From positions 1,714 to 65,713 of the forward strand of contig CAITGV010000002.1 of the NCBI GenBank assembly GCA_903892035.1: a stretch of 64,000 bases of DNA, written 5' to 3'. A program made the position numbers and the translations under genes. Numbering within the stretch: the first letter of the stretch is position 1; the number at the start of each line of letters is the position of its first letter. Below the pieces are notes generated by a model, which ran no database searches, was not told where the DNA came from, and saw only the letters and a program-made list of their open reading frames with translations. Below, piece after piece: positions 19,385 through 44,307 of the stretch. This DNA comes from an uncultured bacterium (lineage in GTDB: Bacteria > Patescibacteriota > Minisyncoccia > Phycocordibacterales > UBA9973).

Positions 19385-20017
19385 ATGAGAAATCACAAAT
19401 TTACTGAAGGTGAATACTATCATATATATAATCGTGGCACGGAAAAAAGAGATATCATTTTAGATCAGTATGATCTCCATAGATTTATGAAAAGTTTAAT
19501 AGAATTCAATAGAATTGAGCCTATAGGTAGTTTGTATGAATTATCATTCCAAGAACTTGGTAGTCGGAGTACTAAGTTAAAGAAAAACAAACTAGTTTCA
19601 ATTATTGCGTATTGTATAAATACAAATCACTTCCATTTAATTCTTACTCCACTAGTAGAAAAAGGTATCGAAAAGTTTATGCAAAGAATGGCTGGATATA
19701 CTAGATATTTTAATGAAAAAAATAAGCGAACAGGTGTATTATTTCAAGGTAAATTTAAATCTAAGCATGTTGGATACAATAATTATCTAAATCATTTGAG
19801 TGCATATGTGAATATGAATAATTTAGATAAACTTGGTAGTCGGAGTACCAAGTTGAGCAGGTCTAGTTTAGAGGAGTATATTGATGTGAACTTTGGCGGT
19901 GGTATTTGTGATACATCTATCGTACTTGATCAATTTAAGAGTAAAAAGGACTATTTAAAATTTGCAAAAGAGTCTTGGGCGGATACTCTGGAGAGGAAAA
20001 AGTATCTGGAAATTTAG
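19385..20017 (+). CDS. REP-associated tyrosine transposase (RAYT, IS200/IS605-like Y1 HUH transposase) carrying two in-frame REP insertions
   Basis: Conserved YHIYNRGTEKRDI, HUH motif HFHLIL, FQGKFKS and a Tyr in AYVNMN match the RAYT/TnpA_REP family. Two copies of the REP unit lie inside the ORF, each translated as LGSRSTKL. Confidence 0.75.
   Translation: MRNHKFTEGEYYHIYNRGTEKRDIILDQYDLHRFMKSLIEFNRIEPIGSLYELSFQELGSRSTKLKKNKLVSIIAYCINTNHFHLILTPLVEKGIEKFMQRMAGYTRYFNEKNKRTGVLFQGKFKSKHVGYNNYLNHLSAYVNMNNLDKLGSRSTKLSRSSLEEYIDVNFGGGICDTSIVLDQFKSKKDYLKFAKESWADTLERKKYLEI
19555..19577. repeat. REP unit ACTTGGTAGTCGGAGTACTAAGT (one mismatch) inside the RAYT ORF
   Basis: Read directly. In frame; encodes ELGSRSTKL between the N-terminal motif and the HUH motif. 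Confidence 0.8.
19831..19853. repeat. REP unit ACTTGGTAGTCGGAGTACCAAGT inside the RAYT ORF
   Basis: Read directly. In frame; encodes KLGSRSTKL just after the catalytic-Tyr region. Confidence 0.85.
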
Positions 20018-20553
20018 AGATTTTTTATCTCAGAATTAATTGAATCTCTTTCCTTAGCTGAAAGGTCATAGGTAATTGCTTCACATCCTGCATAGCTATA
20101 CGTCAATCCCAATCCTATTAGTGGTCTGCCTCCAATATCAAGACATTGTTGCGGTGAAAACTGTTCAACATACACCCAAGATTTTCCACCGTTTTCAGGA
20201 CAAACATCACCGAAGCAGTAACTAATAAATTTAACCTCCCTGTTGTTGTAGTAGTAGTATCCGCTTGGAAATTTATAAGAAAATTCTTTTGGGTGAGCAT
20301 TTAAAGGGTTCTGTATATAAACACCGGCATATGTTGTCCCTAAAAATGCAACACAAACGAGAACAATAATTGTAATTCTGAGTGCTTTTGGGGTGGCAAA
20401 AATAATACAAGAAATGATATATAAAATAAGAACAGCTATCAACCCCAGTGGCCTGATAATTGGAAGCTCTCCGTGGCTATAAAAGTACAAAGAAAAAAAC
20501 ATAACAATAGTTAATACTATTTTTGATATGTTTGGTGATATTAATTTCTTCAT
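20014..20553 (-). CDS. hypothetical membrane protein with Cys-containing extracytoplasmic domain
   Basis: 179 aa with three predicted hydrophobic helices then YYYYNNREVKFISYCFGDVCPENGG... No family recognised. Confidence 0.4.
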   Translation of the reverse strand: MKKLISPNISKIVLTIVMFFSLYFYSHGELPIIRPLGLIAVLILYIISCIIFATPKALRITIIVLVCVAFLGTTYAGVYIQNPLNAHPKEFSYKFPSGYYYYNNREVKFISYCFGDVCPENGGKSWVYVEQFSPQQCLDIGGRPLIGLGLTYSYAGCEAITYDLSAKERDSINSEIKNL

Positions 20554-26602: not shown

Positions 26603-28501
26603 TTATTTATTTGGTTGCTCACCACCAGTTTCTGCATCTTTTATTTCTTCACCCTGAGTTTCTGGTGATGGATTTGCATCTGGATTTGGAGCTTCTCCAG
26701 CCTTTGACATTTCTTCGCCAACTTTTGAAAGCGCATCAGAAAGAGTTGACGTTGCATTTTTAATTGCTTCAATGTCAGTTCCTTCTTTAGTCATTTTCAA
26801 TGTTGTCATTTTATCCTCAATGTCTTTTTTTGTTTCTGGAGAAATTTTTTCACCGTAATCTTTCAAAGATTTTTCTGCTGTGAAGTACATCATATCTGCA
26901 GTATTTTTATGATCAACTATTTCTTTTTTCTTCGCATCTTCTTCAGCGTGAAGCTCTGCATCTTGTTGCATTTTCTTTATATCAGCATCTGTAAGACCTG
27001 AACTTGCCTCGATACGGATAGTCTGAGATTTACCAGAAGCTTTGTCCATTGCTTTCACGTTTAGAATTCCGTTTGCATCCACGTCGAACGTAACTTCAAC
27101 TTGAGGAATTCCTCTTGGTGCTGGTGGAATACCATCGAGAATAAATCGGCCGAGAGATTTGTTGTCGCTTGCCATTGGGCGTTCACCTTGAGTGATGTGG
27201 ATTTCCACAGAGGTCTGATTGTCCGCAGCGGTTGAGAAAGTCTGAGACTTGGATGAAGGAATAGTTGTATTTCGTTCTACAAGCTTTGTAGACACACCGC
27301 CTAGAGTTTCTATGCCAAGTGATAGTGGAATAACATCTAGGAGTAGCACATCGCGTACATCACCTTTTAGAACTCCACCTTGCACAGCAGCTCCGAGAGC
27401 TACGACTTCGTCAGGATTGATTGAAAGATTTGGAGCTTTGCCGCCAAAGAGCTTCTTCACTTCTTCAACAATCTTTGGCATTCTTGTTTGTCCTCCAACC
27501 ATTATGATTTCATTTATTTCACCCATTTTGAATGGTGAAGCTTCAAGAGCACGCTTTGTGATAGCGATTGATTGAGCAATAAATTCATCGGCAATTTCTT
27601 CGAGCTTTGCGCGAGACATTTTGATAAGCAAGTGTTTTGGACCATCTGCACCAGAAGTGATAAATGGAATATTTATTTCAGTTTCTACAGCAGTTGAGAG
27701 TTCAATCTTTGCTTTCTCAGCAGCCTCATCGAGACGCTGAAGAGCAAGAGGATCCTTCGTAATATCAATTCCACTTTCTTTTTTGAATTCTGTCGCGAGC
27801 CAATTGATGATTTTCTGGTCAATGTCGCGTCCGCCCATGTGAGAGTCGCCATCTGTAGATTTCACTTCGATAACGTCGCCAGAAACTTCCAATACTGACA
27901 CGTCGAATGTTCCGCCTCCGAAGTCGTACACGACAATCTTCTCATCTTTCTTTGTATTGAATCCGTATGCAAGTGCAGCTGCTGTTGGCTCATTGATGAT
28001 ACGCTTCACATCGAGTCCTGCGATAGCGCCAGCATCTTTTGTTGCTTTTCTTTGAGCATCGTTGAAGTATGCAGGCACTGTGATGACGGCTTCTGTGATT
28101 TTCTCACCAAGCTTTGCTTCCACATCAGCTTTAATTTTTCCAAGAATCATTGCAGAAATTTCTTCCGGACGATACCATTTATCTCCAACTTTCACTTCGA
28201 CACCACCATCAGTTCCTTTCTGAATTTTGAAAGGACTTGTCTTTTGTGCTTTTTGAATTTCTGGATCGTCGAACATGTGGCCCATAAAGCGTTTGATACC
28301 GTAAATCGTATTTTCTGGATTGGTCACTGCTTGGCGTTTCGCAAGAAGTCCCACCAAACGATCGCCATTTTTTGCAATAGCGACAATAGAAGGCGTCGTG
28401 CGATTGCCCTCAATGTTTTCTATAATCTTCGGCTGTCCTCCTTCAATTATTCCGACAGCTGAATTTGTTGTACCCAAATCGATTCCTATTATTTTTGACA
28501 T
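26603..28501 (-). CDS. dnaK: molecular chaperone DnaK (Hsp70)
   Basis: [20 protein letters not shown] and full-length Hsp70 architecture. 632 aa. Confidence 0.98.
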
Positions 28502-28614: not shown

Positions 28615-28686
28615 TAGAGTATATATGATAGTCTATATGTATGTCAATCCCGTAGAGTGGATTTCCGCCACGGGACAAGGAAAACA

Positions 28687-29286
28687 ATGAAAAAACAAGA
28701 ATTTTCAAGAAAAATAATGAGGATTTTAGGAGAAAAGAAGGCGATTTCTATGCAGGAATTGACTGATAAATTATACAACCCCTCCCGACCTCCCCTTATC
28801 AAGGGAGGCCAAACTGCTATGTATTCCATTCCCCCTGATAAGGGGGACAAAGGGGGTTATAACCCTTCATATGCCATTACCCGATCACTTAAAGGTCTTA
28901 AAGACGCTGGGCTAGTAGAGCATATTTCATCGGGGCAAAATGACTATGTACGAATGACCAAAGAAGGGAAAAAGAAGGCACATAGTTTGAAATTGGAAAA
29001 TGATACAACACTTGTGGATCCATCGTGGGATGGAAAATGGAGAATTATTTTACTTGATTTACCAGAGTCACGAAAAAACGAACGCGAGAGTTTACGTTAT
29101 TTATTGAAAAAGGCAGGTTTTGTTTGTCTAAAAAATTCAGCATGGATTTCCCCCTACCCTTTTGAACATCTATTTGAGAATATCAAAAAAGATTTAGGAC
29201 TCACAACTGAGTTTATGATAATCACAACAGACAGTCTCGACGAAGACACGGAAAAAATAATTAAGGAGAACTTTTGGAAAAACTAA
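28687..29286 (+). CDS. PaaX-like winged-helix transcriptional regulator
   Basis: C-terminal WDGKWRIILLDLPESRKNERESLRYLLKKAGFVCLKNSAWISPYP matches the PaaX C-terminal domain. Start taken at ATG 28687 with AAGGA 6 nt upstream; the tracked ORF begins at an upstream GTG. Confidence 0.6.
   Translation: MKKQEFSRKIMRILGEKKAISMQELTDKLYNPSRPPLIKGGQTAMYSIPPDKGDKGGYNPSYAITRSLKGLKDAGLVEHISSGQNDYVRMTKEGKKKAHSLKLENDTTLVDPSWDGKWRIILLDLPESRKNERESLRYLLKKAGFVCLKNSAWISPYPFEHLFENIKKDLGLTTEFMIITTDSLDEDTEKIIKENFWKN
28774..28868. repeat. 84-bp GC-rich in-frame insertion flanked by imperfect direct repeats TACAACCCCTC / TATAACCCTTC, with two short GC hairpins in opposite orientation (CCTCCCC-TTATCA-AGGGAGG and CCCCC-TGATAA-GGGGG)
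   Basis: Read directly. Encodes NPSRPPLIKGGQTAMYSIPPDKGDKGGYNPS inside the wHTH region of the PaaX-like protein. Flanking YNPS ... YNPS duplication at protein level. Confidence 0.4.
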
Positions 29287-31241
29287 TTTAAAATTTTACC
29301 ATTATCGAGCTTCACAGGAGCCACACAACCCATTATGTCGTTGGCTTTTTTGGTTGTTGATTGATACCAGCGACCTGTTGCTTTATTCAAGACCCATGGA
29401 GAAATGACATCATTTAAATATTTTGTTTGAAATCTTTTAACTGCAAGGAACATTTTGTTATCAAAATATTTAGACGTAGTATCAAGTTTTTCACCCTGTG
29501 TATCATTTAAGAATTTTTTAATTTTAATTATTTCCGCACCACTCTCACCTTTTCTTACATAAGTTGTGAAATAAGGACATGATTTACCCAAAGTTGAATG
29601 AGAAGAGTCTATTGGAGATATGCTCGGGATAATTTGTTCTATTGGTTGTGGTGTTGGTAGTGGTGGATGACCGCCTCCATGTGGACACGAAACTGTTGAA
29701 AATGTTTGATCTGGACTAGAACCAGTACCAGCAGTATTTATTGCATATGATTGGTAGTGGTAAGTTGTTCCACAAGATAAACCTGAAATACTTTTTGAAA
29801 ATGATCCAGTACTATATGTACCAGTTTCAGAAACATTTGTTCCGTAACTTGCAGTATTTCCATAATTGAAACCGCGCTCTGTCGCATCCGCGCCACGAGT
29901 GTCGGTTATATTTCCATTCAAAATAGCAGAATTTTGTGTAATCGTAGAAATCGTATTTACATCAACTAGTGGAATTTGTACTAATAATCCGCCGTCATTA
30001 ACTGTCCAATTGTATGTAGTAGTTAAAATATCGTGTGAACTAGAAGCAGATGAATAATATTGACTATTGCCAGCATCAAAAGTTACATTGTTTTGTAAGG
30101 TTTGATTTGCCCATGAATTTAATATTGAAGAATAGTTTTCTGGTGAAAGTGTATCATCTGTAAACATGTCCGTCATGTCTGTAACATTTGCGACATTCCA
30201 CGTGCTCAAATCTTGATCAAACACAATGTCACCATTAAACATATTATCCATATCAGTGTCCGAAATAAGATTCCATGAGGACAAAGGCTGATTAAATACA
30301 GAATTGTAAAACATATAGCCAGTATTATTTACTTGTGACATATTCCACATATTAAGCGGTTGATCGTAAGCAGATCCATCAAACATATCATAAGCAATAT
30401 TTAATGATGAAGTGTTCCATGAATTTAAAGGTTGATCAAATAACGTAGCGCCAGAAAATAAAAAAGACATATCGACAACTTTTGAGACATTCCAGTAATC
30501 ATGATTTTGGTCATATGCGAGACTCTGATTAAAATCAGTATTTTGATAAAACATTCCGCTCATTCCCACCAAACCATCTGTATTCCACATACTTATATCT
30601 TGATTAAATGGTGACATTGCAAAAGTAAATTGCATATACTGTACATTTGATGTATTCCATAAATTTAATGGTTGATCAAAGTTTGAAGAATTGAACATGT
30701 TTGATATATCTGTGATATTAGAAATATTCCATGTATTTATACTATGATTTGAATTATCAAACGATATAACAGCATAAAACATACTATCAAGAGTTTCAAC
30801 AGATGTTAGATCTGGTGCGTCCACAGCATTTACTACTAAATTTGCACAATTATCAAATGCGTGACTCATTGAAAGCCAATGAATATTTCCCCAATTTTCA
30901 ACTGAAAGAATCTTCAACATGTCTGTTGAATCAGCAGAACCATTGAAATATATTTGCGGAAAAGTTCCTGTAATTTTTACTGTATAAATACCGCTTGATG
31001 CATATGTGTGAGTTATATTTCCAGTGACTCCGATATCTGTATTCGAATCACCCCAATCAACATCATAGTTGTAAGTTTCAAGAGGCTTTGTTGGAATAGT
31101 AATTTGTTTATTATTTGATGAACCAGGACTAATATTTGCAGTATTCCATGTCGTAATAAATTCACCTGCCGCACTAGCTTTATGATGAATAACAAATACA
31201 ATTAACAATAAAAACATTCCTATACATATCTTTTTAAGCAT
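29283..31241 (-). CDS. secreted surface protein: DUF285/BspA-type 26-residue repeats, FN3-like domain, Pro-rich linker, C-terminal PG_binding_1-like domain
   Basis: Signal peptide. Repeated F-N-Q/D-x-L/I-x-x-W-N-v-S-x-V-x-x-M-x-x-M-F units. FN3-like AILNGNITDTRG ... CGTTYHYQSYAINTAG. C-terminal GAEIIKIKKFLN ... AVKRFQTKY peptidoglycan-binding-like segment. Confidence 0.75.
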   Translation of the reverse strand: MLKKICIGMFLLLIVFVIHHKASAAGEFITTWNTANISPGSSNNKQITIPTKPLETYNYDVDWGDSNTDIGVTGNITHTYASSGIYTVKITGTFPQIYFNGSADSTDMLKILSVENWGNIHWLSMSHAFDNCANLVVNAVDAPDLTSVETLDSMFYAVISFDNSNHSINTWNISNITDISNMFNSSNFDQPLNLWNTSNVQYMQFTFAMSPFNQDISMWNTDGLVGMSGMFYQNTDFNQSLAYDQNHDYWNVSKVVDMSFLFSGATLFDQPLNSWNTSSLNIAYDMFDGSAYDQPLNMWNMSQVNNTGYMFYNSVFNQPLSSWNLISDTDMDNMFNGDIVFDQDLSTWNVANVTDMTDMFTDDTLSPENYSSILNSWANQTLQNNVTFDAGNSQYYSSASSSHDILTTTYNWTVNDGGLLVQIPLVDVNTISTITQNSAILNGNITDTRGADATERGFNYGNTASYGTNVSETGTYSTGSFSKSISGLSCGTTYHYQSYAINTAGTGSSPDQTFSTVSCPHGGGHPPLPTPQPIEQIIPSISPIDSSHSTLGKSCPYFTTYVRKGESGAEIIKIKKFLNDTQGEKLDTTSKYFDNKMFLAVKRFQTKYLNDVISPWVLNKATGRWYQSTTKKANDIMGCVAPVKLDNGKILN

Positions 31242-31258
31242 TTTAGGATTATAACATA

Positions 31259-34200
31259 TTATTTTTTACTAGTTGTAACTGTTTTAGCCAAAATTTCATT
31301 GACCACTTTTCTGGAATAAGTCCAGAAAAGACCTGTACCTTTTTTCAAACCTTGCGGTGCAAGAATTTGTTTGAAGTGATATTCCTGAAAAGCAATTAAG
31401 GCTTTTTTTGTTGCTGGACCAAACAGATTTGTCTCTTGCCCAGGCGAACCAGGTCCAGTTTTTGCTACAAGAAAACCATTTGCATTCAAGAATATTTGAA
31501 GTCTTTTTACAGAAATATCAGTTGAATTTGGTGCAAGATTTTTTGGGAATTTATAACCAGTTAAACTACCGGCAATAATTGGTTTTACGCCGTATGGATC
31601 AACCGTAGTATTATTTTGCGTATTATTTACATTTACAATTACGCACTTATTAGAACTATCTAATACATAGCCAGATTGACATGTATTTGTCGTTGTTGGA
31701 GTTGGTGTTGGAGCTACATACCAACCACCTCCGCCCCCACCTCCTCCTCCACCACCATTTGAACATGACGATGTGGTAAATGTACTATCCTCTGTTGTCA
31801 TTTGTGTGTAGCTATTTACTGCATAGCTTGCAAAGTGATATGTAGTTCCACACGATAGATTTGATAAATTTGTTGAGAATGCACCAGTACCGTATGGTCC
31901 ACTATTTTGAGTTATGGTCTGACCATAGTCTCCAGTTGTGCCCCAATAAAATCCTCGTATTGATGCATTTTGACCACCAGTGTCTGTTATGTTTCCATTT
32001 AATGTCGCTGATGTTTTTGTAACATTTGAAACTGAACTTGTAACAGTCGGACCAGTTATATCCAACATCCAAGTAAGTTGAGGGAAATCATTTGGAACAA
32101 TTCCCCACACACCATCATTAGTAAATGACCATGATGATAATGGTGCTACGTAATTATTGTATTTGAAGTAATTTGGACTATTACCATCTGTATTTACCGC
32201 ACTACAACCATTGATACTTTGACCAAATACACAGTCATTTTGACCGCTATTTGTTTTGTCGAAATAATCATTTAAAATAGTATCATCACCACTTAAATAT
32301 CCTGCAAATCCTCCATAATCTGTTGTGAAGTTCGAAACTGTTCCTACAGAGAAAAGATTTGTAAGAGAATCATTACCACTAGAATATCCCACAAATCCAC
32401 CACCAGAACCTCCTGCATCTATACCATCAACATTTCCTGTTGAGTATGAATTTGTAATTTGATCAGTACCATCTAAATATCCAATAAATCCTCCAACATA
32501 ATTTGCTCCACTTACATTTCCACGAGCATATGAATTTTCAGCATCTAGGTTACCATTTTGTGAAGCACCAACCAATCCTCCAACATATGAATTGCCATTT
32601 CCACCATGAACATTTCCAATTGCAAAATCACTATATAAGTGCGAGTCATCATCAATTCCTATTAAACCACCAGCTCCACTTTGATCATCGTTGTCTGGTG
32701 CTGTGACATTTCCAGTCGAGCTACTTTCTGCAATATAAGGACTTCCATTTATTGCTCCAATAAGACCACCGATACTATGAATAGTATCGGAAGTAGAGGC
32801 ATTAACATCACCAGTAGTGTGGAGATTTATACCAACCATTAATCCGAAACCAACAAGTCCACCAATGTCAGGATAAAAACCTCCATTAGGTCCAGCTGTG
32901 ACAGTGACACTTGAGTTCACATTTACTATTTCTGTAAAAACAGCCAATGAAGTAAGTGCGCCTACATTATGTATTGAACTAATAGTACCAGTAAGATTCA
33001 AATCATGAATATATGATTCAAATACATATTGGAATAATCCATCTCCATCTGAATTTCCAGCACTGTCATCTATTGCAAAATCAATAGTGTGTCCACCTCC
33101 ATCAAATTCTCCATGAAATCCAGTTTCTTGATTATAACTTCCAACCATTATGTTGTTTCCATTTCCAGCACAATGTAAATCATTTTCAAGTACAAAATTT
33201 GATGAAAGGAAATCATTGATATCCATAAATTGCTGACAAGTAGAAATCTGATATGGATCACCAGAAAGACCAGTACCTCCATCAAATGGGCTCAAAACAT
33301 AACCGAAGTGCAAGTAGTCTGGCACACCAACACCGAGGTATTCAACACGAATTGTATGATTACCACCATCGAGATTTACATTTATACTTGTACTACTACC
33401 TTGATAGTACCAGTGATCCAAAATTAAATTATCATCTACATAAACCCTTGCTTCATCATCTGCCCCCACAGTAAATATATAATTTCCCGCTGAAAGATCT
33501 ACAGTTTCAGTATAACGAGCAGTAAATACTGAATTTCCAACACCCACAGGATCTCCGTCATAACCCCAATCATAGTTTACTGAATCAGTATTTGTGGTTA
33601 GGTCAGCTGGTCGATCTGGGATAATTATTTCAGAATCAGATACTATTCCTGACCAGTATTCTGCAGTGTAAGCACCGATTGGGTCATCTGAGACAAGAGC
33701 GTGAAGTGTAGGCAAGTGACTTGTATTCACATCCCAAATCGGCTCACCAGAAAAGTCCCAACTTGTAAGTGGTGCATTTGAGTCATTTGCCACAAAATAA
33801 TTTGCATCACTTCCATCTGTATTTACTGCAGTACAATTTTCCATTACATCAGAGTACCCTGCGCAATCAAGTCCACCACTTGCTGTTTTGTCATAATAAT
33901 TATTAGAAGAAATAACTGGCTCGCCTTTCATATCGCCAACAAGTGCAGCATAACCAAGACTAAAACCAGAAACATTTCCTTTCACAAATGAATCCGTAAT
34001 CAATGCAGAGCTAAATGTTTCTCCGATAAGTCCACCACCTTTGTATCCTGAGTCAGTACTCACAACATTACCAGCAAAATACACACTTGAGAGAATTCCG
34101 TATTCATCCATCGAACCAATAAGTCCTCCTACATAATTTATTCCAGTAACAGTTGAAGTCGAATATGAATTACTCAATATTAGTGGTATTCCACCAGAGT

Positions 34201-37200
34201 ATGCATATTCACCAATAAATCCTCCAGCGTATGAATCTGTATAATATCCTGTAACATGGCCAGTGGAATAATTTTGATCCATCAAGCTAGATAGTATATA
34301 TTGATCATTACTGTTATCTGTTGAATCATATACACCAATTAATCCGCCAACATCAGCATTTCCTTGTACATCACCAGAGAAATAATTCAAATTAAAATTA
34401 TTGGTGAATCCTGTATTACTTTCATTGTAAAGATAATAATTTCCAACAAGTCCACCAATTGCACCACCCTCCGCTGAAACATTAGAGGTCGAATAATTAT
34501 TTTCCATTGTGAAATTTACTGAACGATTTGAAACCCAATTCTCAAGATCTAAATTTCCAATTAATCCACCAGTATTACTATAACCTTCTACTGTGCCAGT
34601 TGAATAATTATTTGAAATATTTACTGAAATATCAATATTTCCATTTTCTTGGTCTAGATAAAAGTATCCAAATAAGCCTCCCGTGTAATCATCTCCATCA
34701 ATATTTGTAACATTTCCAGAATAATGATTACCAGTAAATGTTAGAGTACCTTCGTAGTTATTGTAATTTCCAATGAGTCCACCAGTGTCACTATTTTGAC
34801 CATTCGAAATATCATTTTCAGCAAACGAATTTGTAATACTTACAACTGAACTATTATTTTGAATTAATTGACCAATAAGTCCTCCCACATCATATCCATC
34901 ACTTATTAGTCCGACTGTATGAGAACTATTTGAAATAGTAAGTCCAGCTGTGTCGTTACTTTGATATCTTCCTGAAATAGTAGCCGAGCCAATAAGTCCA
35001 CCAATCTGATTGGAACTACTATTTATCATACTCGTAGATGTTGAATTTGAAAGTGTAATTCTGGCACCAGATTGATCAACGTTATCCATATAACCAAACA
35101 GTCCACCCACGCAATATATTCCACTAATAATTCCGTTTGAATTTATATTACTGAATACAGATGAATAGTTATTTGTTGCTTGCACATATCCACCAATACC
35201 ACCTGTATAATATTGATTTGAAGTAACATTTGCATTACTTACAATATTTGTAAGCGTTAAATTATTTCCACTACCAAATAATGCACCAGTGCCACTACTT
35301 GCATTAGTTGAATTAATATTTCCATTTACAACAAGATTTAAAATAGAAGCACCATTGGTATTTTGCAACAAGCCCACTGCATAACTTAATGAGTCATCAA
35401 TATTTACGTCAATACTATTTCCACCACCATCAAGTACTCCACTGAAAGGAATTTTTGTACCAATCATTATATGATTGCCCTCATCAGCGCACTCCAAACT
35501 ATTCATCAATAAATAATGTTTATCAAGTAAACCAACATTATCCATTTCTTCAAATTGAGCGCAAGTGGAAATTTGATATTTATTATTTGCTGTTCCCTCT
35601 CCACTACCAGAATAAGTTGAAGAGAATAGATTTGACCTTAGTGTTGGTAAATTATCTGCATTTGCTTGCCATGTTGATGTAAAGTTCCAAGAAGCAAGTG
35701 GTGCATTGGCATTTGTATCTTTGAAATAATTTGGGTCAAATCCATCTGTATTTACAGGTGAACATCCAGACACATCTTCATTGTGTGCACACCCAACAAC
35801 CCCTGTATTTGTATAGTCATAAAAATTATTTGTAAGCGTACCGCCATTTACTCCAGTGATTCCTCCGGTGTTGTTTAAGAAACTCGAAACAAATCCAGTA
35901 GCAAAAGAATTTGAAATACTTCCAGCATTATAGCCAGAAAGACCAGCACCATCATCTCCATTATTATATCCAGTAACACTACCAGTGGCATAAGAGTTTG
36001 ATATTGTTCCATAATTCAAGCCAGAAAGACCTCCGGCATATTGAGACCCTACAACAGAACCAGTTGCAAAAGTATTTGTAATAATACCTTCATTTTGACC
36101 AACAATACCACCAACCGCATCAGTAGCTGAAACTGCTACAGATGAATAAGAATTAAGAATATGTCCACTACTCATCGAATGTCCAGCAATACCTCCTATC
36201 CATTGTGCCCCAGAAACAGTACCTGATGTATAAACATTTTCAATATGTCCGTAGTTGACTGCTGTGACTGCACCCACATTGTCTTGATTGGTCGCAAAAT
36301 TAACATTTTCTAAATTTAAGTCATAGACCTTTCCGTCACTATTTAGATTGCTGAACAACCCCGCACTTGCACCGGAAAGATTTTCATACAAATGATTAAT
36401 TGTATAACCTTGACCATTAAAGCTTCCACTAAAATCTACAATTGGAGAAAAGCCCTGACCAAAATTATTTGACCAATTTATTGTATCAGTACAGTCAATA
36501 TTATTTGTCAGAATGAAGTTGTCGTTTTGATAATTTCCAACATCAGAGAGCTGAGTACACTTCGATATTTTATATGGGTCACTCACTGTTCCTGTTCCGC
36601 CATCAAAATCCTGTGGTGCTGATTGTGCATTTGTAAGTTTCGGATATGTACCGAGTTGTGTATGCCATATATAGAAATCCCAACTTGATATTGGATCGTT
36701 AAAAGTATTATTGAAGAAGTAATGCGCATCTGGTGAACCAATTGTATTTACTGGTTCACATCCAGGGAAATCACCTTCATTACTAGTACAATTATCTGAA
36801 TTGGAATTTAATTGGTCGTAGTAGTCGTTTCCAAAATCTACGGAATTATATCCATAGTAACCAGCAAAACCAGCATAAGTATCCAAGAAATTTGAAACAG
36901 CTCCAGCTGAAAATGAATTGTAAATATTTACATTTGAATCTGTCCAACCAACGAATCCACCAGCAACATTTCCACTACCATCTCCTGTAACATTTCCAGA
37001 AGAATATGAATTAAATATATCAATAATATTGTTTGCTTGCCCTACAAGACCTCCTGCCATCGTGTGACCAAGAACATTTCCAGTTGAGTAAGCATTATTT
37101 ATTAGTATAAAACCATTTGCTTGACCAACGAGACCTCCTGTATATACTTCAGAACTAACATCTCCCGTAGAGAAACTTTGATTGATAGTTGAAAAAGATT

Positions 37201-40200
37201 CCATGTAACCAACAAGTCCTCCGACACCATAGTCAACCAAACCATTTGGAGTGTTCTTTGTCACAGCTCCAGTACTAGAACTTGTATCAATAAGTGACCC
37301 ACCTGTGACAATACCAGCAAGACCACCAATCCCTCCAGCACTATAATTATCTGTAACGGCGCCTGATGAAACACTATTAACTATATAACTACTGTTTTCA
37401 ATATAGCCCACAATACCACCAACTGCACTTTCTTCATTATCATCAGTTGTAGAAGTAACTGTTGCAGATGAAGTGACATCGTAAATATTTGTACTATCTG
37501 CGTAACCAACAAGTGAGCCAATGCCTGGATAGTATCCATTGTTTGAAGTTGATACAACACTACCAGTTATATTTACATTTCCAATTGTCGCACCTTGTGC
37601 ATCTGTAAACAAACCTACATCAAAATTTTCAGCATTAATATTTATATTTATTGTGTGACCTCCACCGTCAAAACTTCCTGTGAAATAATTATTATTATCA
37701 CCTATCATCACACCATTACCAAGTGATGCACAGTCAAGATTTGCATCAAGAACATAACTACCAGAGAGATTATTATTTATATCTACAAGTTGCTGACAAG
37801 TTGAGATATGTGTGGGATCAATACTGCCAAACACTATTGCAGAAAGTGTTGGGTAAGTGCCAGGATTTAAATGCCAAATATTTTCAAAGTCCCAATTATT
37901 TAATGGAGCATTTGTAGAATTAGTTTTGAAGTAAGAAGTATTAACAGATATTGGATCATTTACAGGCGAACAACCAGATTGATCACCATTGTTTGTACAG
38001 CCCGACTGACCTGAACCAAAGAAATCATAATAACTATTTTCATAATAAGTATCGCCATCATCATAACCAACCATACCTCCAGTATCTTGATTATAATTTG
38101 TTATATAACCAGTAGCAAAACTATCAACCATTGCTCCGTCAAAAAAACCAACAAGACCACCGGCATCTTGACCACCCAAATTTCCAGTTACATCTCCACT
38201 TGCATATGAACTATTAATATTTGTGTAATAATTGTAGCCGACAAGACCTCCTGCTGTATCAGAACTTACTACGTTTCCTTGTGCGTATGAATTGGTAATG
38301 CTTGAAAACTCTGCATCTCCTATAAGTCCTCCTGCATCATAAACAATATTTACATTTCCTTTTGCGTAATCTTCATAAAAATTAGAATCACCTGCATACC
38401 CCACAAGACCACCACCACCTGTATCAATATTTGTACCCTGCATTGAAACATTTCCTGTTGTAAAACTACCACCTATTTCTGAATTATTTTCTACATACCC
38501 AGCAAGTCCGCCTATTGATTCCACATTATCTCCACCAGTAATATTGGCCGAAGATGAACTATCATAAACACTAGAACTGTTTGCATAACCAACAAGCCCT
38601 GCTACTGTTTGCCAAAAGAAAGAAGAACCAGTGACACTTCCTGCAATATGAGCATCTCCTATTATTGCTCCGTTTGTGTTTTGAAATAAAGCAACGTTAA
38701 ATGATGTGTAATCATTTATGTCTACCGCTATAGTGTGTCCGCCCCCATCAAACAATCCAGTAAATGGATCAACAGTACCAACCATAATATTATTATGTTC
38801 AGCTGTACAATCAAGATTTGTTATTAGTTTGAAATATTTATCTAACAAATCATATTTATTTATTTCTTCAAATTGAGAACATGAAGTAATAAGATAAGGT
38901 GACAAATCTGTGCCATCTCCAGCACCTGAAAATCCCGTTGAATATGTTTGTAGTATTGGAAGTGTTGAATTATTTGTTTTCCAAAGCGTAGAAAAATTCC
39001 ATTTATCAAGTGGTGCAGTACTTGATGTATTTACAAAATGATTTTGATCAGCGCCATCAGTATTTACCGGAGTAGCACACTCGCCTCCGCCCATACCACC
39101 CAAAGCACCATCACCTTCACAATTTACCTGACCACCAACGGTTTTGTCGTAGTAATTGTTTACAATTGTACCTACAGAATTTCGGCCGAATAAATTTCCG
39201 ATATATGTATCGCTTGCAAGTGGAGTTTGAGTGTATCCTGAACCATTATTGAAATAAATACCACTAGTAGTAAATGAATCCATCACTGGTCCATAATTGT
39301 AACCAGAAAAACCTCCAATGTATGTGTTGTTAAATGGATATGTAATTCCTTCAGCCATGACACTTCCAGAGGAATAACTTTTATCAACTATTGAATTATT
39401 GTAACCAGAAAAACCTCCAACGGTGCTATAGCCATGTACTGTACCTGTTGCAAAAGAATTTTCAATTATAAAATAATTTAAACCAACAAAACCACCAACG
39501 TTATAAGTTCCTATCACATCACCCGTAGCATAAGAGTTTTCAATTACTCCTTGTGCTTCATTTCTACCAACAAGTCCGCCTGCACCTTCTGTACCCGTAA
39601 CATTTACAGATGAATGAGAATTAATAATTGTATCCGAGTAATCATGACTCCCCACAAGTCCACCAGTGTCACAAGAATTACTTGTTACTGTACCAGTTGT
39701 GTAGGTATTTGAAATACTTCCATAGTTACTTCCAACAAGCCCACCAACATCACAACCTCCACTTGTATTAATTATATTTACATTTTCTAAACCAACATTT
39801 TTTATCAAAGAACCATTTTCAGTAATTCCAAAAAGTCCAGCAAATTGATGGTCTGTATCGTGTTCATATAGATTTGAAATAACATAACCATTTCCATTGA
39901 GAGTACCAAAAAATTTATTTCCAGCATCTGGTCCGATTGGTAAAAATCCAGCACCATCATTCCAACTTACTGTATCACTACAATCAATGTTGTTGTTTAA
40001 AACATAAACATAATTTGCATTTAAACCAAGGTTGATGTTTTGCAATTGGTAACAAGTAGAAATCTGAAACGGATTTCCCAATGTACCAACACCTCCTGCA
40101 AAAGTATCAATGGAATCCGAAGCCAAACGATCCAGCACTGGCAGATGATTAAAGGCTGTGGTCCATATTGTTGTACTGTCCCAAGCATCAAGCGGAGCAT

Positions 40201-43200
40201 TATCAAAATTATTTAAGAAATAACTAGGATCAGGACTTCCGATAGTATTCACAGGTGAACAACCAGAAATGTCACCATTGTTTGTACAATTCATAACACC
40301 TGACGCAACTTGATTGTAATAACTATTTGTAAATGTATTACCACCCATATCTTCACCATCAATAGCGCCATACCAACTTGCAAAATTTTTCAAATTTCCC
40401 GTAAAGAAAGAGTTACTAAAAGTTGTATCTAAACTTGCAGTTACTAATCCCCCACCATTTGAAGCAGAATCTACGCCATCAATAATTCCTGAAGCATATG
40501 AATGAGAAATAGTTACATGGTCAGTATAAAATGCTACACCTCCTAACGATGTTTGCCCTGTAACATTACTTGTAGAATATGAATTATCAATATCACCGTA
40601 ACCAAAATAGCCCGCGAGTCCACCCATATACCCAGGACCCGAAAGACTACCTGTTGAGTAACTTTCAATCATATCTGATGCGTTTGAACATCCAAGTATT
40701 CCACCTATAGAATAATCAATATCAAGCAAAGGATTAATATTCAAATTTCCTGTTACATAACTTTTATCAATTGTTGACGTAACCAAATCACCCACAAGAC
40801 CACCAACAGTTGAAGCATTATCTAACTCTGGAGAAATAATATTTCCAGAATAGGATGTATTTGAAAAATATGTACTATCAGAATATCCAACAAGTCCACC
40901 GATATTTGGCCATGAACCATTGTTTGCAACATTTATAATATTTACACTTGAGTGAATATTTCCAATTAAAGAATTTTCAATATCTGCTGAAAATGACCCG
41001 ACATTGTTCATAGCCGTAATCGTGCCTGCGATATTTAGATTTTGAACCGAAGCACCATCAATGTATTGGAATAGACCAACACTAATTTCGTCTCCAAAAG
41101 TATCATCAATAGCAATCGTGATTGTATGGTCTTGTCCATCAAAATTTCCATAAAATGGCAACGATGTCCATCTCGAACCTACCATTATATTGTTTCCAAA
41201 TGAGGAACAATCAATATTATTATTCAATACATAATACGCGCCAAGATTCAAATTTATATTTTCAAATTGCTGACATGTTGTGATTTGATATGGATTACCA
41301 GAAGAACCGTCTCCACCAGCAAAGTTTGAAACAACTCCGTTGTTGAAATAATATGTACCAACACTTGAATTTCTATTTTGTGTAATGTCTTCATTTACAC
41401 GAGAATCTAGAAGAGTCCAAGTTGAATCATCATTACTTGCGTATAGATTCCAACTTATTGGATCTCTTGCTGTATTATCACCGGCTGTCCTCCATCTATA
41501 GCCATCAAAATTCACACCCTCACCCATATCAATATGAAGTATAGAGTGACCTGTCTGATTGTCACCACCACCAACTCCAAAATTATTATCTTGCCACTTT
41601 GTGTAATTATTTCCATCTATAGCCATAAATGGAATATTTTCTTTTGGATTATTTCCACTAGGATTAGTCGCTACAAAAGGTATTTCTGGAGAAATTATTT
41701 GTCCCCCAACCTCAGGAAAAAATTCTCCGACTTGAATACAATTGTTTGAACAATTTGCATCTGGACCAGCATCGCGTCTTTTTGTAATATCCCATTTCAA
41801 ATATCGGTACGAAGGAACAACAACATCATCTGCCGAAATATTTACAAGTCTTGGCAAAAAGCCAACAGTTTGATTCCAAATATCACCATCCCAAGCATCC
41901 ATTGGTTTTGCTGAAAGATTCGTAATAAAATATTTTGAATTTGGAAAACTTTCAGTGTCTACAGGTTTGCAACCATTTATACCTTGCTGATAAGTACAAG
42001 TATTTATTTGTGAATTAATCTGGTCGAAATACACATTTGTATATGTCGCGCCAGTATCGTAACCAACAAAACCTCCAAAATTATCAATAAAACTTATTAC
42101 ATTTCCTTTTGAAAAATCATCATTAAATTGATCACTGCTACTTGTGTAACCAATAAAACCTCCAGCATATGAACCACCATCAAGTCCATCTACATTCCCC
42201 GATGCATATGAGTGTTCTATTATATCTCCACCATCTGTGTATCCAATAAATCCTCCGGCAGTACCACTTGCGTGAACTGTACCAGTTGCGTATGAGTCGC
42301 TGATATATACACCTCCGTTTTGTGACGCACCAGAAAAACCTCCGACATAATTACTTCCGAGTCCACCATCAACATTTCCAGAAGCAAAACTCTCTGTTAT
42401 CGTTGAATTATCAGAAACACCAAAAAGTCCACCATATCCTGACGCGTTGGAATAATCTCCCGCTGTAACATTACCAGTCTCGTATGATTGACTTACAGTT
42501 GATAGAAATGAATAACCTATAAGACCACCAACGGTATGAAGTGTATCACTTGCTGACGCATTTATGGTTCCAGTTGATGAACTATTTTCTAAAGTTGAAT
42601 TATCAATTTCACCAATAAGCCCACCAATTTCTGGATAATAATTATCATTAAATAATGTAGTAATGTTTACACTAGAATTTACATTATAAAAATCAGAACT
42701 ATTATCAGCATAAGATACCAAACTACCTATTGTATGAGGAGAAATAATGCTTCCAGAAATATTTAAATCATGAATTGTTCCACCACTTACATATTGAAAA
42801 AGTCCAGCGCCGTCATAATCTCCATTTTCATCATCAATACTTATATATATAGTATGACCTCCACCATCAAAACTTCCAGTGAAAGGAATGCTATTTCGTA
42901 AATTTCCAATCATTACACTATTTCCGTCGCCTTCACAATGTAAATCAGTATCTAAAATATAAACATCAGAAAGATTATTATTTATATTTTCAAATTCTCC
43001 ACAAGTAGTAACACGTGTTGCAATCTGTAGAAAAGGATATCCATTATTTGTATTTCCATTAATACTCCAAGGTAGTGCAAAAGCCCAACCCGCATTTACA
43101 AACGTGCTTTTTGTTTTTAGAGTATTTGTGTTAGCACTTGTAAGGCCCGTGCAGTTTCCACCTCCACAACCATCTGACTGGCCAGCTGTTTGATTGTCCC

Positions 43201-44191
43201 AAAATGAATTAGAAAAAATTTGCCCGCCATTTCCTCGTCCCATAAAAGCTCCTGTGGATGTTGCTCCACCTCCGACACTTCCATAACTAAATGAATTTGA
43301 AATATTAGCAATTGAATAACCGACAAATCCTCCGACATCCTGAACTGTTCCTGTAACATTTACACCCGAATAAGAATTATCGATACTTCCTCCATCCGCT
43401 TCTCCGATAAGTCCTCCTACTTGAGAAGTACCAACTATTATACCTGTTGCATATGTCTCAGAAATTGTTCCGCCACCCATATATGCTGAAATTGCGCCCG
43501 TGGTTCCGCCACCAGTAATGTTTACATTTTCCAACCAAACCCTCGTGATAACAGCACCTGTCGATAATCCCCCAAAAAGAGATGCATTGTTTACTAATGG
43601 TTGATTGATAAAAAGACCAGATATTTTATACCCCATTCCATCAAAGTGACCAACAAAAGTATTATTAATATCTCCAATCGGCATAAAACCATCACCTGTA
43701 TTGTATGGATCAACATTACAATCAATATTACTTCCGAGTACATAGTACGCAGAACGATCGTTGGCCATATCTTCTAAATCAGAACAAGAATTTATTACGT
43801 AAGGATTATTAGAAATACCAGCACCTTGAGAAATTTGTGGAGCGATTTTATTTTGCGGAGGAGTTGGTTTTTGATTTAAATCTTGCGGTGTAGAAATTGG
43901 TGCTGGTGTAGGATCCGGACTTGGTGTTGGAGTTGGTGTTGGCAATGAAGCAGGGTCAGGCAATGGATCAGGAGTTGGTGTCGGAATCGGATTTGGATCA
44001 GGTGTAGGATTTGGTGTTGGAGTTGGAGTTGGATCAGGTGCCGGCGTCAAATTCTGATCTATACTCGGGGGAATAGAATCATCCGCATTAGCAATATAAA
44101 TCAATGCTTGAGATACTGGAGCGACTGTAAAAATAACAATTAATAAATTTAATAATAAAAACTTTCCACCAACTAATAAAATTTTTTTCAT
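31259..44191 (-). CDS. giant (4310 aa) cell-surface protein: signal peptide, PT-rich linker, about eight GLUG-motif modules, discoidin (F5/8 type C)-like domain, PA14 domain, FN3-like domain, Gly12 run, PG_binding_1-like C-terminus
   Basis: Uninterrupted 12.9-kb ORF. Recurring module N-P-Y-x-I-x-x-C-x-Q/L ... Y-x-L-x-x-x-I-D-C ... F-x-G-x-F-D-G-x-G-H-T-I followed by many GGLVG/GGFIG GLUG units. Discoidin-like near 41402-41809. PA14-like (VGADDEARVYVDDNLILDHWY) near 33305-33667. FN3-like near 31760-32047. LQIFLNANGFLVAKTGPGSPG near 31310-31516. Confidence 0.85.
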   Translation of the reverse strand: MKKILLVGGKFLLLNLLIVIFTVAPVSQALIYIANADDSIPPSIDQNLTPAPDPTPTPTPNPTPDPNPIPTPTPDPLPDPASLPTPTPTPSPDPTPAPISTPQDLNQKPTPPQNKIAPQISQGAGISNNPYVINSCSDLEDMANDRSAYYVLGSNIDCNVDPYNTGDGFMPIGDINNTFVGHFDGMGYKISGLFINQPLVNNASLFGGLSTGAVITRVWLENVNITGGGTTGAISAYMGGGTISETYATGIIVGTSQVGGLIGEADGGSIDNSYSGVNVTGTVQDVGGFVGYSIANISNSFSYGSVGGGATSTGAFMGRGNGGQIFSNSFWDNQTAGQSDGCGGGNCTGLTSANTNTLKTKSTFVNAGWAFALPWSINGNTNNGYPFLQIATRVTTCGEFENINNNLSDVYILDTDLHCEGDGNSVMIGNLRNSIPFTGSFDGGGHTIYISIDDENGDYDGAGLFQYVSGGTIHDLNISGSIISPHTIGSLVSYADNSSDFYNVNSSVNITTLFNDNYYPEIGGLIGEIDNSTLENSSSTGTINASASDTLHTVGGLIGYSFLSTVSQSYETGNVTAGDYSNASGYGGLFGVSDNSTITESFASGNVDGGLGSNYVGGFSGASQNGGVYISDSYATGTVHASGTAGGFIGYTDGGDIIEHSYASGNVDGLDGGSYAGGFIGYTSSSDQFNDDFSKGNVISFIDNFGGFVGYDTGATYTNVYFDQINSQINTCTYQQGINGCKPVDTESFPNSKYFITNLSAKPMDAWDGDIWNQTVGFLPRLVNISADDVVVPSYRYLKWDITKRRDAGPDANCSNNCIQVGEFFPEVGGQIISPEIPFVATNPSGNNPKENIPFMAIDGNNYTKWQDNNFGVGGGDNQTGHSILHIDMGEGVNFDGYRWRTAGDNTARDPISWNLYASNDDSTWTLLDSRVNEDITQNRNSSVGTYYFNNGVVSNFAGGDGSSGNPYQITTCQQFENINLNLGAYYVLNNNIDCSSFGNNIMVGSRWTSLPFYGNFDGQDHTITIAIDDTFGDEISVGLFQYIDGASVQNLNIAGTITAMNNVGSFSADIENSLIGNIHSSVNIINVANNGSWPNIGGLVGYSDSTYFSNTSYSGNIISPELDNASTVGGLVGDLVTSTIDKSYVTGNLNINPLLDIDYSIGGILGCSNASDMIESYSTGSLSGPGYMGGLAGYFGYGDIDNSYSTSNVTGQTSLGGVAFYTDHVTISHSYASGIIDGVDSASNGGGLVTASLDTTFSNSFFTGNLKNFASWYGAIDGEDMGGNTFTNSYYNQVASGVMNCTNNGDISGCSPVNTIGSPDPSYFLNNFDNAPLDAWDSTTIWTTAFNHLPVLDRLASDSIDTFAGGVGTLGNPFQISTCYQLQNINLGLNANYVYVLNNNIDCSDTVSWNDGAGFLPIGPDAGNKFFGTLNGNGYVISNLYEHDTDHQFAGLFGITENGSLIKNVGLENVNIINTSGGCDVGGLVGSNYGSISNTYTTGTVTSNSCDTGGLVGSHDYSDTIINSHSSVNVTGTEGAGGLVGRNEAQGVIENSYATGDVIGTYNVGGFVGLNYFIIENSFATGTVHGYSTVGGFSGYNNSIVDKSYSSGSVMAEGITYPFNNTYIGGFSGYNYGPVMDSFTTSGIYFNNGSGYTQTPLASDTYIGNLFGRNSVGTIVNNYYDKTVGGQVNCEGDGALGGMGGGECATPVNTDGADQNHFVNTSSTAPLDKWNFSTLWKTNNSTLPILQTYSTGFSGAGDGTDLSPYLITSCSQFEEINKYDLLDKYFKLITNLDCTAEHNNIMVGTVDPFTGLFDGGGHTIAVDINDYTSFNVALFQNTNGAIIGDAHIAGSVTGSSFFWQTVAGLVGYANSSSVYDSSSSANITGGDNVESIGGLAGYVENNSEIGGSFTTGNVSMQGTNIDTGGGGLVGYAGDSNFYEDYAKGNVNIVYDAGGLIGDAEFSSITNSYAQGNVVSSDTAGGLVGYNYYTNINSSYASGDVTGNLGGQDAGGLVGFFDGAMVDSFATGYITNYNQDTGGMVGYDDGDTYYENSYYDFFGSGQSGCTNNGDQSGCSPVNDPISVNTSYFKTNSTNAPLNNWDFENIWHLNPGTYPTLSAIVFGSIDPTHISTCQQLVDINNNLSGSYVLDANLDCASLGNGVMIGDNNNYFTGSFDGGGHTINININAENFDVGLFTDAQGATIGNVNITGSVVSTSNNGYYPGIGSLVGYADSTNIYDVTSSATVTSTTDDNEESAVGGIVGYIENSSYIVNSVSSGAVTDNYSAGGIGGLAGIVTGGSLIDTSSSTGAVTKNTPNGLVDYGVGGLVGYMESFSTINQSFSTGDVSSEVYTGGLVGQANGFILINNAYSTGNVLGHTMAGGLVGQANNIIDIFNSYSSGNVTGDGSGNVAGGFVGWTDSNVNIYNSFSAGAVSNFLDTYAGFAGYYGYNSVDFGNDYYDQLNSNSDNCTSNEGDFPGCEPVNTIGSPDAHYFFNNTFNDPISSWDFYIWHTQLGTYPKLTNAQSAPQDFDGGTGTVSDPYKISKCTQLSDVGNYQNDNFILTNNIDCTDTINWSNNFGQGFSPIVDFSGSFNGQGYTINHLYENLSGASAGLFSNLNSDGKVYDLNLENVNFATNQDNVGAVTAVNYGHIENVYTSGTVSGAQWIGGIAGHSMSSGHILNSYSSVAVSATDAVGGIVGQNEGIITNTFATGSVVGSQYAGGLSGLNYGTISNSYATGSVTGYNNGDDGAGLSGYNAGSISNSFATGFVSSFLNNTGGITGVNGGTLTNNFYDYTNTGVVGCAHNEDVSGCSPVNTDGFDPNYFKDTNANAPLASWNFTSTWQANADNLPTLRSNLFSSTYSGSGEGTANNKYQISTCAQFEEMDNVGLLDKHYLLMNSLECADEGNHIMIGTKIPFSGVLDGGGNSIDVNIDDSLSYAVGLLQNTNGASILNLVVNGNINSTNASSGTGALFGSGNNLTLTNIVSNANVTSNQYYTGGIGGYVQATNNYSSVFSNINSNGIISGIYCVGGLFGYMDNVDQSGARITLSNSTSTSMINSSSNQIGGLIGSATISGRYQSNDTAGLTISNSSHTVGLISDGYDVGGLIGQLIQNNSSVVSITNSFAENDISNGQNSDTGGLIGNYNNYEGTLTFTGNHYSGNVTNIDGDDYTGGLFGYFYLDQENGNIDISVNISNNYSTGTVEGYSNTGGLIGNLDLENWVSNRSVNFTMENNYSTSNVSAEGGAIGGLVGNYYLYNESNTGFTNNFNLNYFSGDVQGNADVGGLIGVYDSTDNSNDQYILSSLMDQNYSTGHVTGYYTDSYAGGFIGEYAYSGGIPLILSNSYSTSTVTGINYVGGLIGSMDEYGILSSVYFAGNVVSTDSGYKGGGLIGETFSSALITDSFVKGNVSGFSLGYAALVGDMKGEPVISSNNYYDKTASGGLDCAGYSDVMENCTAVNTDGSDANYFVANDSNAPLTSWDFSGEPIWDVNTSHLPTLHALVSDDPIGAYTAEYWSGIVSDSEIIIPDRPADLTTNTDSVNYDWGYDGDPVGVGNSVFTARYTETVDLSAGNYIFTVGADDEARVYVDDNLILDHWYYQGSSTSINVNLDGGNHTIRVEYLGVGVPDYLHFGYVLSPFDGGTGLSGDPYQISTCQQFMDINDFLSSNFVLENDLHCAGNGNNIMVGSYNQETGFHGEFDGGGHTIDFAIDDSAGNSDGDGLFQYVFESYIHDLNLTGTISSIHNVGALTSLAVFTEIVNVNSSVTVTAGPNGGFYPDIGGLVGFGLMVGINLHTTGDVNASTSDTIHSIGGLIGAINGSPYIAESSSTGNVTAPDNDDQSGAGGLIGIDDDSHLYSDFAIGNVHGGNGNSYVGGLVGASQNGNLDAENSYARGNVSGANYVGGFIGYLDGTDQITNSYSTGNVDGIDAGGSGGGFVGYSSGNDSLTNLFSVGTVSNFTTDYGGFAGYLSGDDTILNDYFDKTNSGQNDCVFGQSINGCSAVNTDGNSPNYFKYNNYVAPLSSWSFTNDGVWGIVPNDFPQLTWMLDITGPTVTSSVSNVTKTSATLNGNITDTGGQNASIRGFYWGTTGDYGQTITQNSGPYGTGAFSTNLSNLSCGTTYHFASYAVNSYTQMTTEDSTFTTSSCSNGGGGGGGGGGGWYVAPTPTPTTTNTCQSGYVLDSSNKCVIVNVNNTQNNTTVDPYGVKPIIAGSLTGYKFPKNLAPNSTDISVKRLQIFLNANGFLVAKTGPGSPGQETNLFGPATKKALIAFQEYHFKQILAPQGLKKGTGLFWTYSRKVVNEILAKTVTTSKK

Positions 44192-44253
44192 AAAGTAAAT
44201 ATATTATATCAATTATGAAATGAATAACGAAATATTTTAAACTGGGGAAAACA

Positions 44254-44285
44254 AAAAAACTTTTATATTTCTATAAAAGTTTTTT
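44254..44285. terminator. AT-rich 14-bp-stem hairpin AAAAAACTTTTATA-tttc-TATAAAAGTTTTTT between the two giant genes
   Basis: Read directly. Perfect palindromic arms with T-run after the hairpin on the minus strand. Confidence 0.4.
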
Positions 44286-44307
44286 TGTTTATTCAAATTA
44301 TATAATT

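Follow-up and report, generated by a model that had tools for sequence, protein, structure and literature searches.

The C-terminal wall anchors of Gram-positive bacteria, which include the sortase substrates with their LPXTG motif and Pro/Gly-rich region, the GW modules of Listeria InlB, and the SLH, LysM and CWB2 domains, share a common logic: a Sec signal is followed by a variable head, a low-complexity segment that spans the wall, and a constant C-terminal device that is reused. PG_binding_1 (PF01471/IPR002477, also PGB1), a module of monoderms, endolysins and spore-cortex lytic enzymes, binds the wall non-covalently from a terminus of the protein and is a three-helix bundle with the signature LQ..L...G......FG..T..A...FQ. 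Bacteria of the candidate phyla radiation (CPR, Patescibacteria) are mostly uncultured episymbionts, believed to rely on large surface proteins for contact with their hosts; to our knowledge, how these proteins stay on the cell has not been established. Here we analyzed a 64,000-nucleotide stretch of DNA from an uncultured patescibacterium (contig CAITGV010000002.1; hereafter the window) in which three consecutive open reading frames (ORFs) on the minus strand, A, B and C, encode proteins that each end in a fibronectin type III-like (FN3) domain of ~98 residues, a low-complexity linker and a three-helix domain of the PG_binding_1 type. We favor, with reasonable though incomplete confidence, the view that this shared tail is a modular cassette for the non-covalent, C-terminal retention of CPR surface proteins at the cell wall.

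The PG_binding_1 copies of the window and its lineage differ from previously known copies in carrying a lineage-typical loop, TG-x-GSPG-x-ET, and in some cassettes an insert after the FQ (..EVLAPWGL.KGTG). They also sit on giant adhesin-like proteins rather than on hydrolases, and do so regularly behind an FN3 domain and a poly-Gly/Pro linker. Proteins from the same bacterial class, likened here by description, are the extracellular peptidoglycan-binding-domain (PGBD) proteins of Kuroda et al. 2024 (mBio, PMC10936435), in which a peptidoglycan (PG)-binding domain is combined with Ig-like or PKD folds and for which a surface role was proposed. The role that its authors propose is host attachment, and an FN3-linker-PG tail is not presented there as a reusable cassette; in the literature that we searched we found no paper that describes such a tail explicitly as a reusable CPR cassette, but just remarks of a general kind about secreted proteins that bear a PGBD and about giant surface proteins. 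The FN3 domain, for its part, belongs to the same sub-family as bacterial tandem FN3 domains of Bacteroidota, of Fibrobacter-type TIGR02145 proteins and of others (LxGxV..GG....GF.YG...Y....G.F...L..L.P.T.YYxRAYA.N..G..YG), to which it is 35-50% identical.

The three proteins differ greatly in what precedes the tail. Gene A (29283..31241, 652 residues) encodes a signal-like N-terminus, a PKD-like stretch (weak PKD_4 match, E 4e-5), repeats of the BspA-type DUF285 family (E 1e-56) and the cassette. Gene B (31259..44191, 4310 residues) encodes a signal-like N-terminus, Pro/Thr repeats, GLUG motifs with Peptidase_M26_N-type modules, an F5/8 type C domain, a PA14 domain and the cassette, and gene C (44308..51174, 2288 residues) a signal-like N-terminus, GLUG and Peptidase_M26_N-type repeats, propeller-like repeats (residues ~1198-1552) and the cassette. 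The tail is the only part that A has in common with B and C; the heads of B and C additionally share repeats of 29-43% identity. Every tail contains LNGNIT, GF-x-[YW]-G, CGTT[YF]H, a linker, and then either LQIFLNANG...FQ or KIKKFLN...AVKRFQ, and in all three proteins the cassette ends 5-16 residues upstream of the stop codon. A six-frame translation of the window contains exactly three copies of LNGNIT and three of CGTT[YF]H, all of them in the tails. We also looked for further, divergent cassette copies by running hidden Markov models (HMMs) of both domains against the 222 six-frame ORFs of at least 60 residues in the window; these searches returned the three tails only.

The common arrangement had first been proposed in a sequence-only reading of the window, and alignment of the tails at the protein and DNA levels upholds their relatedness. 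The FN3 parts are 44-53% identical over 92-97 residues (blastp E 1e-30 to 1e-39), far above the level, under 25% identity with no common motifs, at which the tails would count as unrelated; at the nucleotide level they are 53-59% identical. Behind the FN3 domain, the tails of B and C align over 124 residues with 37% identity (E 6e-22). The last domain of A is far more divergent, its best pairwise blastp match being to B (E 4e-4). Two details required amendment. The cassette of A, which had been placed from 29700, begins at ~29975 on the minus strand, where its FN3 domain starts, and the Gly runs, given as 8-12 residues long, are of 8 residues in C and 11 in B, while A has in their place a PHGGGH motif and a Pro-rich stretch.

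We could identify no other device that would hold these proteins on the cell. Each protein has a single hydrophobic segment, at its N-terminus (residues 1-25 in A, 1-36 in B and 4-28 in C), and the N-termini resemble cleavable Sec signals, as in A, where a candidate site judged by eye separates ...HHKASA from AGEF. Unlike the Gram-positive anchors described above, the last 150 residues of A, B and C contain no LPXTG-like motif ([LN]P.[TSA][GNSA]) and no hydrophobic window that could serve as a C-terminal membrane segment, on which grounds we rejected covalent anchoring of the sortase type. Pfam searches of the three proteins likewise found no SLH, LysM, GW or CWB2 domain, so that retention would be non-covalent and would proceed through PG_binding_1.

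Assignment of the first tail domain to the FN3 fold required structure prediction, since no Pfam FN3 model was significant on any of the three single window copies. PF00041 (fn3) gave no match even at E<=10, and the best match was to an FN3-like model, Pur_ac_phosph_N, which has a cut-off of 30 bits and scored 13-15. A relative with tandem copies (P0001), by comparison, reached 64 bits with Pfam fn3, whose cut-off is 25. An AlphaFold2 model of the C tail, built on a 13-sequence alignment, contains a beta-sandwich of ~100 residues with 7-8 strands and a predicted local distance difference test score (pLDDT) above 90 over residues 1-104. When this domain was compared with the Protein Data Bank (PDB) using Foldseek, the best 50 matches were all fibronectin type III domains, with TM-scores of up to 0.72 (titin Fn3-56, E 2e-6, TM 0.69). 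The modeled C tail thus has an FN3 fold (residues 2060-2157; 44704..44997), and we infer the same fold for A (residues 423-520; 29682..29975) and B (residues 4048-4144; 31760..32050) from their 44-53% identity to C; the A copy is 50-53% identical to those of B and C. HMMs built from homologues only scored 108.9 bits (E 2e-33) on A, 93.4 bits (E 1e-28) on B and 101.6 bits on C. Each copy holds a pair of cysteines (Cys 490 and Cys 519 in A, Cys 4114 and Cys 4143 in B, Cys 2127 and Cys 2156 in C) that belongs to the Patescibacteria cassette copies (L.C.TTYH ... T.SC); these copies also differ from the bacterial tandem FN3 domains in the PG_binding_1 domain that follows them. The Cys pair is conserved at 90% or more among cassette FN3 domains (alignment A4) and is missing from the one Bacteroidota-type relative that we inspected (P0071). 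A second pair, Cys 555 and Cys 639, brackets the terminal domain of A. Both pairs probably form disulfides, to judge from the sequences.

The label of the last domain, PG_binding_1-like in all three proteins, also found support, although not equally: Pfam backs it for B and C, whereas A falls below the Pfam gathering cut-off of 23 bits for PF01471 and is the weakest of the three. The C domain (residues 2206-2283; 44326..44559) scores 43.1/45.5 bits (E 8e-12) with PF01471 and 82.5 bits with an HMM built from ten homologous tails, window sequences left out, and the model of the C tail places three helices here (model residues 164-175, 197-209 and 220-231). The B domain (residues 4214-4300; 31292..31552), of a long-insert subtype (FQEYHFKQILAPQGLKKGTG), is borderline with PF01471: the full-length protein scores 22.5 bits and the isolated tail 26.4 bits. 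With the homologue-only HMM, the B domain reaches 68.8 bits. The A domain (29286..29573) is a divergent three-helix domain with a 13-residue C-terminal extension, and a single-sequence search with the homologue-only HMM gave it 6.6 bits. Its sole database homologue, P0121 (46% identity), is too little to make a family of its own; P0121 itself retains the canonical pattern vDG.Y....AVKRFQ. When A and P0121 were aligned as a profile with 14 PG tails of other genomes, hhalign returned a probability of 97.5% and an E-value of 6e-12 over 73 columns. A model of the last 99 residues of A (pLDDT 91.4) has three main helices, and its best PDB matches contain PG_binding_1: 5TV7, the SleB N-domain 6TCI (TM 0.84), CtpB, phiKZ gp144, the AP3 endolysin and the Zn DD-peptidase 1LBU. 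The entries 4C2C, 3BKH and 5NM7 are among these best matches, and SleB/SleC and L,D-transpeptidases were among the types matched. As the alignment behind this model contained PG_binding_1 relatives, the structural comparison is not a fully independent test. Together, the profile alignment and the model support the last domain of A as a divergent member of the PG_binding_1 family. The cysteine pair that brackets this A-type domain is found also in P0121 and in a 715-residue cassette protein of a close relative (locus L082).

Between the two domains lie linkers of differing length and a common low-complexity character. In A it comprises 36 residues (29574..29681), read as PHGGGH and then a stretch rich in Pro, Ser and Ile. 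The linker of B comprises 69 residues (31553..31759), with a run of 11 Gly (31724..31756), the segment WYVAPTPTPTTT and a Cys-bracketed loop, CQSGYVLDSSNKC, and that of C 48 residues (44560..44703), with a run of 8 Gly (44659..44682), YIAPP and a stretch rich in Asn, Thr and Pro. The C linker is predicted to be disordered (pLDDT below 50 in the AlphaFold2 model). Runs of at least four Gly occur in 12 of the 25 FN3-to-PG linkers of related loci, the longest being of 17 residues. Such runs directly follow the FN3 domain and often lead into [WY]-[IV]-A-P, and they are present as well in PG-tailed proteins without FN3 (P0055 and P0099). The small loop of B (residues 4171-4183; 31643-31681), between the Gly run and the PG domain, has counterparts of the form C-P-x-G-[FM]-x-C in the linkers of other genomes, namely in ORFs of locus L024 and in P0055.

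The combination of these parts recurs widely in related genomes. Of the candidates scored with a profile of the three tails, 725 proteins matched. The FN3 part proved widespread, reaching Bacteroidales, Planctomycetota, Ignavibacteriae and Fibrobacter-type TIGR02145 proteins, and matches that covered more than 85% of the query also bore PF01471, the one named example being from Ca. Paceibacterota. Scanning 185,579 species, each represented by one genome, yielded 79 loci. Matches to the whole cassette were almost all in metagenome-assembled genomes (MAGs) of Patescibacteria (Paceibacteria, Taylorbacteria, Nomurabacteria, the Parcubacteria group and genomes labeled Saccharibacteria), and FN3-only matches extended to Bacteroidota, Bacillota, Desulfobacterota and Verrucomicrobiota. 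An HMM scan of the 79 loci found PG domains in 28 ORFs from 24 loci, mostly arranged as (FN3)n-(PG)1-2 with a linker, and 23 of these 24 loci were in MAGs or single-amplified genomes that are labeled Patescibacteria or unclassified. The last matched domain lay 0-9 residues from the end of the ORF in 23 of the 28 ORFs and ~50 residues from it in the other five; exceptions to the arrangement were an ORF in L028 that has its PG domain first and is cut off by the contig end, and two PG-only ORFs (L008 and one of those in L031). As in the window, two cassette genes stood side by side in five loci (L024, L027, L031, L033 and L048). The heads on these cassettes are unrelated to one another, and include BspA-type leucine-rich repeats (P0012), NHL repeats (P0050) and propeller-like repeats (P0003 and the 715-residue protein of L082), while in P0045 and P0028 a signal peptide alone precedes the cassette. 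Searched exhaustively, a set of 1.84 billion representatives yielded 109,028 matches at E<=1e-3. Among the best 150 of these, 12 contained the whole cassette as one stretch, which in 9 of the 12 ended within 3 residues of the C-terminus (e.g., P0149, P0193, P0204, P0217 and P0235). A C-terminal tail of FN3 and PG_binding_1 is abundant in public data, where it carries the generic annotation 'peptidoglycan-binding protein'; the cassette is real but ordinary, a common tail in Patescibacteria. One FN3-PG-PG ORF with a 17-Gly linker was found in the assembly of an alphaproteobacterial isolate (L030, Rhodoplanes sp. SY1 contig_113, 4193-5545; locus GC 0.58), and could represent either a contaminant contig or horizontal transfer.

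We favor a wall-retention role for the tail because of the identities and order of its domains, the lack of any other retention signal in A, B and C, the recurrence of a constant tail on many heads, and published views of the CPR envelope. CPR genomes carry genes for peptidoglycan synthesis, a Gram-positive-like envelope has been predicted for these bacteria, and their surfaces are elaborate, with giant proteins (PMC6744442, PMC8080830). PG_binding_1, moreover, figures in a list of domains by which surface proteins of monoderms bind the cell wall non-covalently (PMC5817068). Each protein would be exported by the Sec system via its N-terminal signal peptide, which would be cleaved, and the PG_binding_1 bundle, as the last domain to leave the translocon, would bind the peptidoglycan of the cell that made it. 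The linker, with its Gly run and its disordered segment rich in Pro, Thr and Asn, could act as a flexible tether across the wall, and the disulfide-capable FN3 domain as a rigid spacer at the base of an exposed, adhesin-like head (DUF285 repeats in A; GLUG/M26_N-type repeats, PA14 and F5/8C in B and C). On this model the cassette would be an old module, shuffled onto many unrelated heads.

Several considerations weigh against such a role. The terminal domain of A scores 14.3 bits with PF01471, below the cut-off, and is without the G-x-GSPG-x-E-T...FG..T loop that is conserved in the other tails; for these two reasons its ligand may be a different one, or it may have no ligand at all. The best-known PG_binding_1 domains are those of wall-degrading enzymes, in which the domain targets the substrate rather than anchoring the protein. 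Were the N-terminal signal to remain uncleaved, the protein would be fixed in the membrane by its N-terminus, and the tail would be free to engage another target. The ligand specificity of PG_binding_1 is poorly characterized even in model organisms (PMC5817068), and for secreted proteins of Paceibacteria with a PG-binding domain the role that has been proposed is one in host attachment (PMC10936435).

These last points lead to the main rival to wall anchoring, namely that the tail is directed at a host or prey cell, whose peptidoglycan, pseudomurein or other glycan it would bind, and that A, B and C are released effectors, or bridges held by an uncleaved N-terminal anchor. The matches recovered with the A model are in keeping with this possibility, as PG_binding_1 is typical of enzymes that act on the wall of another cell or of a substrate, such as endolysins (phiKZ gp144, AP3), SleB/SleC, DD-peptidase and L,D-transpeptidases. 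Kuroda et al., in addition, described highly expressed secreted PGBD proteins in three Paceibacteria that parasitize archaea (PMC10936435). The heads of the window proteins include carbohydrate-binding and adhesin-type domains (PA14, F5/8C and DUF285), and fast turnover of the island that encodes them between close relatives, described below, would fit the evolution of host range. Set against this, Pfam detected no wall-hydrolase catalytic domain in A, B or C, only the non-catalytic Peptidase_M26_N region and GLUG motifs. The Sec signals, which by eye look cleavable, would leave the tail as the sole means of self-attachment, and a tail that stays constant while the heads vary widely is what one would expect of an anchor whose variable end faces outward. 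We consider targeting of a host wall unlikely overall, but the leading alternative.

A role that does not involve peptidoglycan seems still less plausible. The three-helix domain might make protein-protein contacts, whether in oligomerization, in docking to an S-layer or pilus, or in prodomain-like regulation of the kind seen with the propeptides of matrix metalloproteinases, with the FN3 domain a mere spacer. The terminal domain of A, lacking the loop motif and lying under the Pfam threshold, would suit such a role, and the PG_binding_1 fold is also used as a regulatory or propeptide domain, CtpB being one such case among the structural matches. However, B, C and most homologues retain a strongly conserved PG_binding_1 signature, and there is no protease to regulate: Pfam identified no protease catalytic domain in the three proteins.

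The sequence-only reading had also suggested a check for gene conversion between the tails, which proved negative. In codon-aware alignments the FN3 parts are 59.4% (A and B), 57.5% (A and C) and 52.8% (B and C) identical in nucleotide sequence, and their longest identical runs are of 8-14 nucleotides. At residues that are identical in a pair, 22 of 48, 23 of 51 and 24 of 43 codons are themselves identical, against 21.3, 23.3 and 19.9 expected from the codon usage of the genes. A search for DNA repeats linked the tails only through one family (D14) of 70 nucleotides at 64-73% identity, and FN3 relatives in other genomes are 55-64% identical to each window copy, as close as or closer than the window copies are to one another (44-53%). 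Recent duplication within the genome, or gene conversion that homogenized the 3' ends of A, B and C in concerted evolution, is therefore ruled out for practical purposes by the codon comparison, the repeat search and the equally close foreign copies, even though A, B and C are neighbors on one strand with a tail in common. On these comparisons the tails are old paralogues or shuffled modules rather than recently homogenized copies.

If the tail does retain proteins at the wall, its uses are practical. It offers a sequence signature with which to list the displayed surface proteome of CPR genomes, a testable hypothesis of anchoring, and a handle for labeling or pull-down in enrichment cultures. 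As a combination of two well-known domains that is common in databases, it has value for annotation, establishes no new principle and would not surprise a specialist. A broader proposal, which we put forward as speculation and doubt more than we credit, is that Paceibacteria and related CPR lineages display their surface proteins mainly by means of this tail, which would do for them what sortase/LPXTG or SLH anchoring does elsewhere, and that variable islands swap adhesin heads onto a constant anchor and so set host range. In that event the Cys pair, the Gly run and the Cys loop of the linker would be functional parts of a wall-spanning stalk and not incidental features.

The candidate for such an island is the region between grpE and dnaK (28657..52673), which holds, in addition to A, B and C, a gene for a DUF5666 protein (51307..51951) and one for a PaaX-like regulator (28657..29286, plus strand). 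Pfam assigned these two genes as well as grpE (52062..52673) and dnaK (26603..28501), and found DUF5654 among the neighboring genes. The DnaK protein of the window is 83-85% identical to proteins named Ca. Nomurabacteria/Paceibacterota, which puts the window close to that group. In relatives at 85% DnaK identity (L084 and L086), the order is rpsI, grpE, a PaaX-like gene on the opposite strand and dnaK, with at most one small ORF (81 residues) between grpE and the PaaX-like gene. In relatives at 94-95% identity (L082 and L088) the gap holds a single 715-residue cassette protein and the DUF5666 gene, and in the window it holds the DUF5666 gene and three cassette genes over 22 kb. The 715-residue protein of L082 (5375-7522) has head repeats that are 39% identical to residues 1198-1552 of C, an FN3 domain with a PHGGGH linker like that of A, and two PG-type domains, of which the first retains the canonical vDG motif and the last is 61% identical to the tail of A. 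Set against the window, this protein is by sequence a mosaic. From the mosaic and the contents of the gap across relatives, we conclude that surface-protein genes form a variable island in the grpE-dnaK interval, with heads and tails, as read from these comparisons, in differing combinations.

Other repeated and mobile sequences were observed in the window. Between gatB and gap, an ORF for an IS200/IS605-type Y1 transposase (PF01797, 210 residues; 19385-20017, plus strand) is accompanied by a 179-residue ORF (20014..20553); the close relative L082 has neither of them at this place. Repeats with a 12-nucleotide period close to the 5' end of B (43887-44056) encode a stretch rich in Pro, Thr and Asp (...PAPDPTPTPTP...) right after the signal sequence. 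B further contains several copies of a repeat module of ~1.1-1.2 kb (33215-43330; repeat families D1-D18) made up of GLUG-type, beta-helix-like units, and modules of the same type are present in C (48460-50812).

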